Positions 26,392-31,186 of a stretch of DNA of 52,918 bases are shown here, one piece after another; the first letter of the stretch is position 1; every line of letters begins with the position of its first letter. The stretch is from Patescibacteria group bacterium (lineage in GTDB: Bacteria; Patescibacteriota; Minisyncoccia; Phycocordibacterales; JACOZG01). The notes below the pieces were generated by a model. The model worked only from the letters and a program-made list of their open reading frames with translations, ran no database searches and had not been told where the DNA came from. The stretch covers positions 1 to 52,918 of the forward strand of contig JBBTRZ010000017.1 of assembly GCA_038064935.1 (NCBI GenBank). Reading direction: 5' to 3'. The translations under genes and the position numbers were made by a program.

Positions 26392-27525
26392 TCATTTTAT
26401 AAATCGGAATGTGGAAAGAATTTTGTTCAGAATATTAAAATTGGCGCTATCACCATAAATATAAAAGGTTAGAAGACGAGTCTTTTCTTTATTCAACGGA
26501 ATCGTGTATTCCACACTCTCGATGCTACCACTTGGCAATAAGTCACGGTCAGGACTTTTGATAACTTCATTTTCGCCGATCATCACTTTAGAAAAACCTT
26601 TTTTCTTGAGACTGGCATTATCTTGTTCACCGATCCATTTGTTTTCATCATTGTACAAAATTGCAAGCTGAATTATGTTATAACCAGTTCTAGATTCTAA
26701 TGCTTGGTTTCCTTGGTTATCAACACCATAGAAGTCTTCTCCTTCTGGATAATTGCGCAATCTAGATACGCCGTCTCTTTCTAACTCCTGAGGTGCTTCA
26801 TTCCTATATTCCGGTGGATACTTAAACTCAAACCCATATTTATCATTCCGATAAGTTTTCCAGCCTTCTACCCCCTCCGAACCTCCCCCCAAGGGGGAGG
26901 TGTAAGTTCCCTCCCCTTCGGGGAGGGCGGAGGGTGGGGTTATGTTTTTCCCCTGCCACAGCCAATAGCCGCCGATGATGAGCAGGACCGGAAGAATAAT
27001 TAAAAAGATGCCGGATTTTGATTTAGGTGTGTCAACACTCGGTGTTGACGATGGCTCGGTTGGTGGTAGTACTTGGTTTGATTCTAAGTTTTGATCGTCC
27101 ATAATTATTATCTTATCATATACTCTTGGGTTTTCTTTCAAATCTTTGTATATGTCTAAAATGAAACCTAATAATGAAATTAATAGAGCTGGCGGGTTAA
27201 CATATCCTTTGAAAAAATCAAAGTTAGCAATATCTAAGAAACCAATGATGATTAACAGAAATAGTAAAGGTCCGTGTTCTGCCCAATAAACTCTTTTTCT
27301 GTTTATTTTTATTATTTTGAAATCTAAAAAAATTGTTTTTGCTGAAAGAACTATTATTATTATGAGCAGTATTGTCGGATATTTTAATTGAAAGTGAAAA
27401 ATTCCGTAAATTAGAATTAGATAGATGAATAACCATACCAAATAAACTTTTCTTACACGTTTCATTCCTGGAAAATTCATAAAGAGATGAGTAGTGATAT
27501 GGCTCAATGCTACCACACCCCACAT
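26392..27525 (-). CDS. Hypothetical membrane protein (AT-rich gene) carrying a GC-rich in-frame insert
   Basis: 377 aa with several N-terminal TM helices and a C-terminal soluble domain. I recognise no family. The start abuts the uvrB stop. Confidence 0.65.
   Translation of the reverse strand: MWGVVALSHITTHLFMNFPGMKRVRKVYLVWLFIYLILIYGIFHFQLKYPTILLIIIIVLSAKTIFLDFKIIKINRKRVYWAEHGPLLFLLIIIGFLDIANFDFFKGYVNPPALLISLLGFILDIYKDLKENPRVYDKIIIMDDQNLESNQVLPPTEPSSTPSVDTPKSKSGIFLIILPVLLIIGGYWLWQGKNITPPSALPEGEGTYTSPLGGGSEGVEGWKTYRNDKYGFEFKYPPEYRNEAPQELERDGVSRLRNYPEGEDFYGVDNQGNQALESRTGYNIIQLAILYNDENKWIGEQDNASLKKKGFSKVMIGENEVIKSPDRDLLPSGSIESVEYTIPLNKEKTRLLTFYIYGDSANFNILNKILSTFRFIK
26870..26940. repeat. 71-nt GC-rich three-hairpin element, copy 1 (inside a CDS, in frame)
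   Basis: Plus strand: ACCCCCTCCG AA CCTCCCCC-CAA-GGGGGAGG TGTAAGTT CCCTCCCC-TTC-GGGGAGGG CGGAGGGTGGGGT. This gives two perfect 8-bp hairpins enclosed by an outer stem. It aligns to the reverse complement of 28255-28325. Confidence 0.75.
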
Positions 27526-29628
<2,103 letters not shown>

Positions 29629-29662
29629 ATCGTTCCACTCTAACTGTTTGACCAAACTTTTT

Positions 29663-29878: not shown

Positions 29879-31186
29879 TCAAGTTGATTGAGTGGATAAA
29901 TATCGGAGTAGAAATTGGTGACGAAAGGACTCGAAATTGTCTTGGAGAATTGACTCCCGAATCTGATGGAAAAATGAATTAAAGAAATAGAGATTATGAA
30001 TCGAGGCCAAAGTGGTTGAGAGCATTTCCTTTGATCGAAAGAGGTGACTCAAGTAAGCGCGGGAATAATTTAAACAAGTTAAGCAGTCACAATCAGCTTC
30101 AATCGGCTCAAAGTCAGTGGTAAATTTACTCGATGCTAAATTAAGTCGGCCACTCTTAGTCTCCACTGTCCCATGCCGACCCAACCGCGTGGGCGTGACG
30201 CAATCGAAACTGTCTACCCCAGCCGCGACCCCGGCCAAAATATCTTCCACCTCTCCAATCCCGAGCAAGTGTCGCGGACGATCGAGTGGCAAAAGTCTGT
30301 TCACGAGTCCAACCGAGCTGCCGATATCTTCTTTGCTAAAAGAACCACCGATTGCAAAACCGTCAACACCGAGCGTTGACATAAACCGCGCGCTCGACTC
30401 GCGCAAATCGAGGAAACGGCCACCTTGGATAATGCCAAAAAGAGCTTGACCAGCCGGCCCCAAGGACTCACCTTGGGGATAATTCTTAAGGTGAGTCCTT
30501 GGGGTTAATCGCTCATGTTCGGCCACACTTCGCTTCGCCCACTCGTGCGTGCGCTCAAGCGCCGTCGCTTGATAAGCGTAAGGCGCTTGCGGCGTCGTAC
30601 ATTCATCGAAGGCCAAAATAATGTCGGCGCCTAAATCGTGCTGAATCGCGATTGACGATTCCGGGGTCAAGCGATGCCGCGAGCCGTCCCGCGGCGAACG
30701 GAAGGTGACACCATCGTCGTCTATTTTTACGAACGATGACGGAGACAGGCGAGCAAAATTTTCATCGGCGTCGGAGCCCGCCCCGCTTCCGACGGGGTGG
30801 GTAAAGACGTGAAAATTTTGCTCGCCTGTCGGAGTCGGGGTTGGATCTTTGGCAACTTTAGACACCCCGCTCCCATACGCCGCGCCGAGGGAGAACACTT
30901 GAAAGCCGCCTGAATCGGTCATGATCGGTCCGGGCCAATTCATAAATTTGTGCAAGCCCCCGGCCGATTTAACGACCGCTTCACCCGGAGAGAGGTGAAG
31001 GTGGAAAGTGTTGGCAAAAATTACTTGAGTCCCCGCGGCCTGCGCTGCCTCGGGAGTGACGCCCTTAAACGCCGCCTGGGTCGCTACGGCCACGAACGCC
31101 GGGGTCTCAATTACCCCATGCGCCGTCTCAATTCTTCCCGCCCGCGCCAGTGAATTCCGACTGGTTTTCTCAACTGTAAATTTCAC
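29879..31186 (-). CDS. tgt: Queuine tRNA-ribosyltransferase
   Basis: 435 aa with TDSGGFQVFSLG, FDECT, and the zinc site CDCLTCLNYSRAYLSHL. A roughly 50-aa insertion follows SLG relative to the E. coli and Zymomonas enzymes. Confidence 0.93.
   Translation of the reverse strand: MKFTVEKTSRNSLARAGRIETAHGVIETPAFVAVATQAAFKGVTPEAAQAAGTQVIFANTFHLHLSPGEAVVKSAGGLHKFMNWPGPIMTDSGGFQVFSLGAAYGSGVSKVAKDPTPTPTGEQNFHVFTHPVGSGAGSDADENFARLSPSSFVKIDDDGVTFRSPRDGSRHRLTPESSIAIQHDLGADIILAFDECTTPQAPYAYQATALERTHEWAKRSVAEHERLTPRTHLKNYPQGESLGPAGQALFGIIQGGRFLDLRESSARFMSTLGVDGFAIGGSFSKEDIGSSVGLVNRLLPLDRPRHLLGIGEVEDILAGVAAGVDSFDCVTPTRLGRHGTVETKSGRLNLASSKFTTDFEPIEADCDCLTCLNYSRAYLSHLFRSKEMLSTTLASIHNLYFFNSFFHQIRESILQDNFESFRHQFLLRYLSTQST
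30745..30829. mobile_element. MITE-like palindromic element inside tgt (20-bp perfect terminal inverted repeats, CGGAG direct repeats on both flanks)
   Basis: ACAGGCGAGCAAAATTTTCA at 30745-30764 pairs with TGAAAATTTTGCTCGCCTGT at 30810-30829. An inner 7-bp hairpin is CGTCGGA/TCCGACG. CGGAG occurs at 30740-30744 and 30830-30834. The 85-bp element plus one 5-bp repeat makes 90 bp, or 30 codons. Confidence 0.55.

Follow-up and report, generated by a model that had tools for sequence, protein, structure and literature searches.

The question raised by this locus, a stretch of 52,918 nucleotides (nt) from a Patescibacteria group bacterium (assembly GCA_038064935.1, contig JBBTRZ010000017.1, positions 1 to 52,918; hereafter the window), is how a short G+C-rich block came to lie inside an AT-rich gene, with a second copy of it in another gene. 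The first copy (26870-26940, plus strand, 71 nt, ACCCCCTCCGAACCTCCCCCCAAGGGGGAGGTGTAAGTTCCCTCCCCTTCGGGGAGGGCGGAGGGTGGGGT) is composed of a C-form module, an 8-nt linker and a G-form module, and lies in frame in a gene for a hypothetical protein (NCBI AAB415_01390; 26392-27525, minus strand), where it is translated as ITPPSALPEGEGTYTSPLGGGSEGVEGW. The second copy (28253-28322, minus strand, 70 nt) is inverted with respect to the first and lies in frame in uvrB (27526-29628, minus strand, within the open reading frame (ORF) 27526-29655), where it supplies residues 434-461 of the 700-residue product. The explanation we favour, to which as a whole we assign a probability of about 0.75, is that a dispersed repeat of the BoxC/PIT/TM type was inserted in the two genes, that the family conserves a fold of single-stranded DNA, and, as its speculative part, that it is propagated by DUF559 endonucleases.

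A sequence-only reading of the window had described the G+C-rich in-frame block, its second copy in opposite orientation in uvrB, and the open frames of both hosts, and each of these descriptions holds. The coordinates and the sequence are correct, and the block has 70% G+C, against 34% for its host ORF (26392-27525, minus strand) once the block is removed and 49% for the window on average. The first 31 nt of the two copies are identical at 28 positions without gaps, the second hairpin is likewise common to both, and neither pattern occurs in any of 100 dinucleotide shuffles. Over the whole element, 59 of 71 aligned columns are identical, with one 1-nt gap (counted from the alignment). With both host genes on the minus strand, the element is read in opposite orientations and, in addition, in different frames, the hypothetical-gene copy being TPPSALPEGEGTYTSPLGGGSEG. 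Stop codons are absent from five of the six frames in each copy, and 158-459 codons of open frame flank each copy on either side.

Folding, which that reading had proposed as a check, yielded RNA and DNA structures stronger than those of shuffled sequences. RNA folds of the two copies reach -50.9, -49.4, -41.3 and -43.0 kcal/mol (z = -3.4, -3.0, -1.8 and -2.1), and the DNA single strands fold into an outer stem and two hairpins, i.e., a three-way junction, with z = -2.8 to -3.8; the programs used consider Watson-Crick pairs only. Searches for a known element returned little. Rfam gave nothing above its gathering threshold and only sub-threshold matches to miRNA-like hairpins (an E-value threshold was also tried), a tRNA/tmRNA search found an unrelated tRNA-Gln alone, literature searches with raw sequence strings and the encoded peptides returned nothing relevant, and a protein search with a chimeric 50-residue query containing the encoded peptide gave no word matches. 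The family was identified only once a mirror repeat had been recognised in the element.

Each copy is an inverted pair of modules of about 36 nt, separated by a linker of 7-8 nt. On its G-rich strand, a module consists of a pyrimidine arm (Y), a loop, a complementary purine arm (R), a loop of 3-4 nt, and a third arm (H), rich in G and a mirror of R; the opposite strand is the C-rich counterpart. The first copy contains the class II triplex modules CCTCCCCC TTG GGGGGAGG TTC GGAGGGGG (26871-26900, minus strand, 8 triads) and CCCTCCCC TTC GGGGAGGG CGGA GGGTGGGG (26909-26939, plus strand, 8 triads, with a T opposite an A-T pair). The uvrB copy contains CCCTCTCC TTT GGAGAGGG CGGG GGGTGAGG (28254-28284, minus strand), which follows the triad code of E. 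coli TM_ECO and is one triad shorter, and CCTCCCC TTTTG GGGGAGG TTG GGAGGGG (28292-28320, plus strand, 7 triads). A scan of the 52.9-kb window for class II motifs found these four, all in the two blocks, and none in 20 shuffles. Their stems (7-8 nt) and loops (3-5 nt) are within the ITxF class II limits of 6-15 nt and 1-6 nt, respectively, and a third arm compatible with antiparallel binding (G.G-C, A.A-T and T.A-T triads) is perfect in all four modules.

Given that the Y, R and H arms are on one strand, a single DNA strand can fold as a hairpin with a reverse-Hoogsteen third strand (C-G.G, T-A.A, T-A.T), i.e., a class II purine-motif triplex. Watson-Crick pairing cannot explain the mirror arm, and a reverse-Hoogsteen third strand is what needs such an arm. 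When the third arm was left free, the fetched loci gave 629 distinct asymmetric Y-loop-R hairpins, of which 199 were followed by a perfect mirror-compatible tail and 33 by a direct-compatible one; mirror exceeded direct by 185 to 8 among near-perfect tails. The matching mirrored tail is present in each of more than 15 arm variants, which have A at differing positions. As a sequence pattern, the mirror repeat marks an intrastrand DNA triplex motif, and not an RNA fold.

The mirror arm also changes how the compensatory substitution between the two copies is to be read. The swap of C-G to T-A in the second hairpin (CCCTCCCC/GGGGAGGG in the first copy, CCCTCTCC/GGAGAGGG in uvrB), which the sequence-only reading had presented as preserving the stem, is real, and with it goes a replacement of G by A where the third arm mirrors this position (GGGTGGGG to GGGTGAGG), a tail change that is unmatched in the opposite outer arm. 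Locus L176 carries a T.G intermediate of this triple change. The swap is, however, a single evolutionary event and weak evidence alone. The proposal that conserved pairing indicates maintained stems fared worse in the covariation check. Among eight Patescibacteria copies, 93.5% of the cells pair and 1 of 25 pairs is altered on both sides, this sole pair being one event, shared by two orthologous uvrB genes (window and L175). An equal covariation score came from 46 of 500 shuffles. Covariation in these eight copies is too weak to carry an argument; the family-level signal is strong.

These results bear on two other ways of reading the structure. One is that the block works in mRNA, where a hairpin or three-way junction between domains would make ribosomes pause or keep the transcript stable, which the very stable RNA folds (-41 to -51 kcal/mol, z down to -3.4) and the position of both inserts at domain boundaries would fit. 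Yet Rfam yields no family above threshold, the element runs both with and against transcription, the in-gene stems decay uncompensated, and the conserved feature is the mirror arm, whereas purine-motif triplexes do not form in RNA according to Semerad & Maher. Moreover, PIT/TM_ECO elements have neither promoter nor terminator activity (PMC4666352), and an mRNA role has, in our assessment, the smallest chance of all the explanations weighed here.

The other is that the G-rich strand folds as a G-quadruplex rather than as a triplex. The R arm, loop and H arm together (GGGGAGGG-TTA-GGGTGGGG) form a canonical quadruplex motif, many members of the family fit the G3+N1-3 G3+ spacing, and some REPs form tetraplexes in vitro. 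The mirror rule, however, also holds in poor quadruplex formers (GGGGGAGA/AGAGGGGG, GGAGAGGG/GGGTGAGG and GGGGGAGG/GGAGGGGG), and for this reason the quadruplex is ranked below the triplex. In addition, the complementary C-arm is always present although a quadruplex needs none, and TM_ECO is a triplex by circular dichroism and nuclear magnetic resonance (PMC4666352). A quadruplex in place of the triplex is hence given very little credence.

The triplex architecture has a known counterpart. In E. coli the family was first described under the name BoxC; Hoyne & Maher found it anew and called its members PIT elements, and its characterisation as TM_ECO is due to Holder et al. (Bergler 1992, Bachellier 1996, Hoyne & Maher 2000/2002, Holder et al. 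2015, PMC4666352). To judge by arms and layout, the window blocks belong, in a broad sense, to this BoxC/PIT/TM_ECO type of G/C-rich intrastrand triplex repeats. The sequence-only reading had proposed a structured, possibly mobile element, and was right in that the block is repeated, inserted, structured and not protein low complexity. It missed the mirror arm, however, and the element is neither a new class nor a new kind of structured RNA, the family having been described since 1992, 2000 and 2015.

TM_ECO follows the pattern CCCTCNCCC N3-6 GGGNGAGGG N3 GGGNGAGGG and is present in 3610 copies in 262 proteobacterial genomes (PMC4666352). MG1655 has 23 copies, all of them between genes, and five times a type A motif is paired in inverted configuration with one of type B, which gives BoxC (PMC4666352). 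Its single strand forms a stable triplex in vitro, as shown by circular dichroism and nuclear magnetic resonance, and local rearrangement is raised at E. coli TM_ECO loci (PMC4666352). The window elements share with this family the Y-R-H arms with a mirrored third and the same triad code (the uvrB module CCCTCTCC/GGAGAGGG/GGGTGAGG may be compared with E. coli CCCTCTCCC/GGGAGAGGG/GGGTGAGGG), variable loops, occurrence as singlets and inverted pairs, wide distribution, and the assignment of neither a function nor a transposase. Two modules of different loop type are found in inverted configuration, and the BoxC pair between lldD and trmL of MG1655 shares with the window element the layout head-Y-R ... 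Y-R-tail. They differ in that the window arms are 7-8 nt long rather than 9-10, the second loop is CGGA/CGGG or TTC/TTG rather than TTA/CCG, the inter-module linker is only 7-8 nt, and the host belongs to the Patescibacteria.

Insertion of the element is concluded because UvrB orthologues lack it, the same element is found in unrelated genes and in both orientations, and it occurs in the intergenic DNA of many phyla. The contig, part of a Patescibacteria metagenome-assembled genome recorded also under GCA_964361635.1 and Logan ERR3858113, encodes a UvrB that is closest to those of Candidatus Vogelbacteria and other Paceibacteria. When this protein was aligned with the 40 sequences nearest to it, a variable loop showed between VRPxxSH and YPGQIKDF. 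An insert of this type is present in the window protein, in P0001 (85% identity) and in P0019 (72%), and is absent from relatives at 74-81% identity, with L178 offering a clean empty site. Solved UvrB structures align on either side and have no counterpart to query residues 434-461. The AlphaFold (AF2) model, with a mean predicted local distance difference test score of 76.7, falls below 50 for residues 437-459, between a strand (427-431) and a helix (464-477).

The same inter-domain loop of other Patescibacteria UvrB proteins holds different palindromes in L301 (501-2549), L302 (501-2579) and L303 (501-2612), that of L301 being a perfect palindrome of 20 bp (GTGGCAAGGACTGTCCTT...AAGGACAGTCCTTGCCAC). 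Differing palindromes at one site point to the loop as an insertion hotspot for several repeat families. Beside uvrB (window 29879-31186), assemblies L001 and L002 have identical uvrB and hypothetical genes and differ in the adjacent gene, which encodes a 435-residue tRNA-guanine transglycosylase (TGT) in one and a 347-residue product without a Pfam match in the other; a similar difference in TGT length separates L176 from L177.

In the hypothetical protein, the element forms part of a linker between a transmembrane anchor and a WKTYRNDKYGFEFKYP domain. The paired block is kept at the same linker position in six other cluster representatives (P0149-P0153 and P0155) and in P0122, P0126 has one module only, and other relatives have unrelated linkers. 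A paralogue at L179:10001-11047 (GCA_043807405.1) has a single module (TSPSALPEGEGT) at the linker position that holds the pair in the window gene, which is either a half-deletion or a singlet insertion. ORF 26392-27525 extends some 165 residues further on the N-terminal side than its relatives do (136-220 residues, starting near KSKSGIFLIILPVLL). Additional membrane segments are predicted in this upstream part, which also has an internal methionine at residue 142; the ORF may be a fusion or have its true start internally.

The family extends well beyond this window. The head pattern ACCCCCTCCNAACCTCCCC was found at no fewer than 120 loci, i.e., at least 120, in species-representative genomes of many phyla. 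Among the matches listed, hosts include Cellvibrio, Devosia, Rhodanobacter/Dyella, Deinococcus, Chloroflexota, Patescibacteria, Prevotella, Aeromonas and cyanobacteria, and the complementary arm follows nearly all of them. An inverted partner lies within 400 nt in 46 of the 129 copies listed, the other 83 being singlets, and inter-module spacers range from 7 to about 200 nt, which gives elements of 47-342 nt. Plasmids and chromids with a pair include those of Photobacterium (34 places on one replicon), Moraxella, Rahnella, Aeromonas, Azospirillum, Nostoc and others, and all of these copies are outside annotated genes. In viral contigs, the two-hairpin pattern has no matches, and the single-hairpin pattern matches mostly ordinary terminators and a related module family. 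The latter, AGCCCCCTCCAAACCTCCCCCACAAGGGGAGGCTTAAAG with shifted T/A variants, is common on predicted phage contigs (L004, L007, L011, L017 and others) and obeys the mirror rule.

Modules inside genes recur in metagenomes. A scan with the G-form module pattern CCCTCNCCNNNGGNGAGGGCGGNGGGTG yielded at least 119 loci (L181-L299); the hosts have 0.31-0.48 G+C, the counts span hosts of unassigned taxa, and the pattern used a stop-free CGGN second loop, which probably favoured coding-compatible variants. Among the matches listed, 55 of 126 modules (44%) are in ORFs with at least 80 codons on each side, a fraction identical to that of random windows from the same metagenome loci (0.44). The coding strand is the G-rich strand in 43 of these 55, most of them reading APSP[LS]ERAGGE[AV], and the remaining 12 are antisense. 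Judged by their translations, the module-bearing ORFs encode leucyl-tRNA synthetase, multicopper oxidases, HsdR/M/S, an Eco57I-like enzyme, an alpha-2-macroglobulin and a Cu-ATPase. Homologues of HsdR (L204, L221, L224 and L253) have the module directly before FEVPKT and in both orientations across contigs, and this use of one site in both orientations argues for independent insertions. A singlet with its usual flanking bases comes to 36 nt (12 codons), and a pair to 72 nt.

The frame bias of these modules (43 of 55), together with the paired block kept at one linker position by six further representatives of the hypothetical family, could also indicate that the block is retained for its peptide, as a selected flexible linker spread by recombination between genes. 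This is opposed by the opposite orientations and different frames of the same DNA in the two window genes, by both orientations at one HsdR site, by the abundance of the element in the intergenic DNA of many phyla, and by an insert that is predicted disordered and absent from solved UvrB structures. A filter against disruptive peptides would produce the frame bias too. Selection for the peptide is considered quite improbable.

Palindromes translated in frame have a precedent. Rickettsia palindromic elements (RPEs; Ogata/Claverie) occur as in-frame insertions in a small genome, in many genes that are unrelated to one another, and are translated, tolerated at surface positions, and used in differing frames and orientations. 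They are about 100-150 bp long, richer in AT, confined to Rickettsia, and without a mirror arm of the triplex type. By description, the window inserts resemble them as in-frame palindromic inserts, and the UvrB-loop hotspot in Patescibacteria is reminiscent of them.

In the favoured explanation, each block is a BoxC/PIT/TM-type dispersed repeat inserted in a variable loop or linker of the two genes. An insert of 72 nt amounts to 24 codons, so the reading frame is kept, and the encoded peptide, rich in Pro, Gly, Ser and Glu and predicted to be disordered, would serve as a floppy linker. The copies would be tolerated passengers without a role in the two proteins. What the family as a whole would conserve is that its DNA, once single-stranded, can fold, probably for short periods during replication or repair, and this folded strand would be what the machinery that propagates the family recognises. 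More speculatively, this machinery could be a DUF559 endonuclease (Vsr-like, PD-(D/E)XK) acting in trans, with its genes nested between or beside modules much as RAYT genes are among REPs.

The likeness to REPs suggests another possibility, namely that the block is a REPIN, i.e., two inverted REPs mobilised by a RAYT (an IS200/IS605-type Y1 transposase). Both families consist of short G+C-rich palindromic units found as singlets and short-spacer inverted doublets, with a candidate enzyme encoded between or beside the repeats. REPs and REP dimers are documented in frame in uvrA, uvrB, uvrC and other repair genes, where dimers encode 20-30 amino acids (Di Nocera 2013, PMC3733652), and a C. hominis GTAG REP, GTAGGGTGGGGC..., resembles the tail TTAGGGTGGGGT. 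The module ends in the window, however, are without the GTAG/CGTC tag, and the mirror third arm that they carry is not a REP feature. No Y1 transposase or RAYT was seen in the loci examined, one convergent module pair that was checked (L076, 1.9 kb apart) encloses a membrane protein, and the candidate partner of the triplex modules is a PD-(D/E)XK DUF559 nuclease, not a Y1 transposase. A REPIN is accordingly held to be an unlikely identity for the block.

The candidate partner of the triplex repeats came to light in a leucyl-tRNA synthetase (L185) with an in-frame DUF559 domain (PF04480, E = 5e-36) that has a C-form module on its left and a G-form module on its right (L185:1583-2168). Its layout identifies this arrangement as a BoxC-like pair with the endonuclease as putative cargo. 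One low-G+C lineage (L185, L258, L251, L277 and L194) has leucyl-tRNA synthetase genes with one or two whole in-frame DUF559 domains and separate single modules, so that an essential synthetase contains an endonuclease domain. In 2.28 Mb of fetched loci, tblastn found 15 DUF559 copies; matches to Pfam PF04480 are at E = 1e-36 to 1e-49. The metagenome copies lie in L185, L258, L251 (two copies), L285, L194 and L277, and six of these seven have modules on either side, 7-55 nt away, arranged as head-Y-R / DUF559 / Y-R-tail. Over all the loci, a C-form module before DUF559 and a G-form module after it is a frequent order, with gaps of 7-60 nt. Five proteobacterial copies (L119, L162, L164, L087 and L062) have a module 11-64 nt away.

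Given that these loci had been chosen for their modules, the test was repeated starting from DUF559, with 14 genes from a plasmid collection that are spread over taxa and were picked solely by DUF559 similarity (L305-L318). A module lies within 400 nt of 8 of the 14, and the 15.4 kb concerned hold 18 modules, with none in shuffles; from the published density of 23 per 4.6 Mb in E. coli, well under one such match is expected by chance. Deinococcus psychrotolerans, in this sample, has the canonical arrangement between paaD and paaZ, and in Sphingomonas several modules lie to either side of the gene. In E. coli itself, ycjD, a DUF559 gene, is beside fabI, TM_ECO #9 is 168 nt from the 3' end of ycjD (L304:9030-9840), and a degenerate type B-like module overlaps its stop codon. 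The region next to fabI is where BoxC was first described. Holder et al. name neither ycjD nor fabI (PMC4666352), and our literature search found no paper connecting DUF559 with BoxC/TM repeats. DUF559 endonucleases may be, from their position, the long-missing mobilising partner of these repeats.

A bolder form of this proposal is that there is a mobile unit which, when complete, has a DUF559 endonuclease between a C-form and a G-form module, and of which BoxC/PIT/TM repeats are miniature, non-autonomous versions, and that unit and miniatures insert in frame in several phyla, including Patescibacteria and low-G+C metagenome lineages, where they would make protein linkers. We advance it tentatively, as an idea with somewhat better odds of being wrong than right. 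Inverted ends, as in a miniature inverted-repeat transposable element, are present, and no insertion sequence carrying the same ends was found; module pairs that carry DUF559 may be the candidate parent of such an element.

Several observations weigh against the explanation we favour. Holder et al. found that a stable triplex forms neither in duplex DNA nor in vivo, and saw no tie to transposons, phages or plasmids (PMC4666352). The strict TM_ECO pattern (9-nt arms, 3-nt second loop) has 0 matches in the window, and the window copies lie in ORFs and are translated, whereas those of E. coli are always intergenic; for these two reasons the window copies are filed as a variant and not as TM_ECO proper. 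A target-site duplication (TA or other) was looked for and was seen neither at the two window copies nor in the 126 metagenome copies among the matches listed. Stem-breaking single changes outnumber compensated ones in the eight Patescibacteria copies, and there is thus no evidence of structure maintenance at the two window sites; judged from these changes, the in-gene copies look like slowly decaying, tolerated passengers rather than maintained structures. As for DUF559, tblastn found no such gene in the 53-kb window, 6 of the 14 independently chosen genes are without a nearby module, the orientation of modules relative to DUF559 is reversed in some proteobacterial loci, such as L119 with its modules on both sides in the opposite order, and the apparent association is one of position only.

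Relative to what is known of the family, the Patescibacteria host, the short-arm variant, the translation within genes in both orientations, and the proposed DUF559 partner are new. BoxC/PIT/TM repeats have been known since the 1990s to form triplexes in vitro and to mark unstable E. coli loci, and they were described as strictly intergenic, with their spread and role unexplained. In the window, the same kind of element is translated in an essential repair gene and in a membrane-anchored protein of an ultra-small Patescibacteria genome, and in the wider scans such in-gene modules are no oddity: in one metagenome sample modules fall in long ORFs at the rate of random positions, and they recur at the same protein sites in both orientations. 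Triplex repeats would thus be a source of protein linker insertions, parallel to the Rickettsia elements in other phyla, and would give some G+C-rich "low-complexity" peptides in predicted proteomes an origin at the DNA level. The enzyme missing from this family has a concrete, testable candidate in DUF559, whose genes are repeatedly nested between modules. If true, the mobile-unit proposal would give a 30-year-old orphan repeat family a mechanism of propagation, and DUF559 a function.

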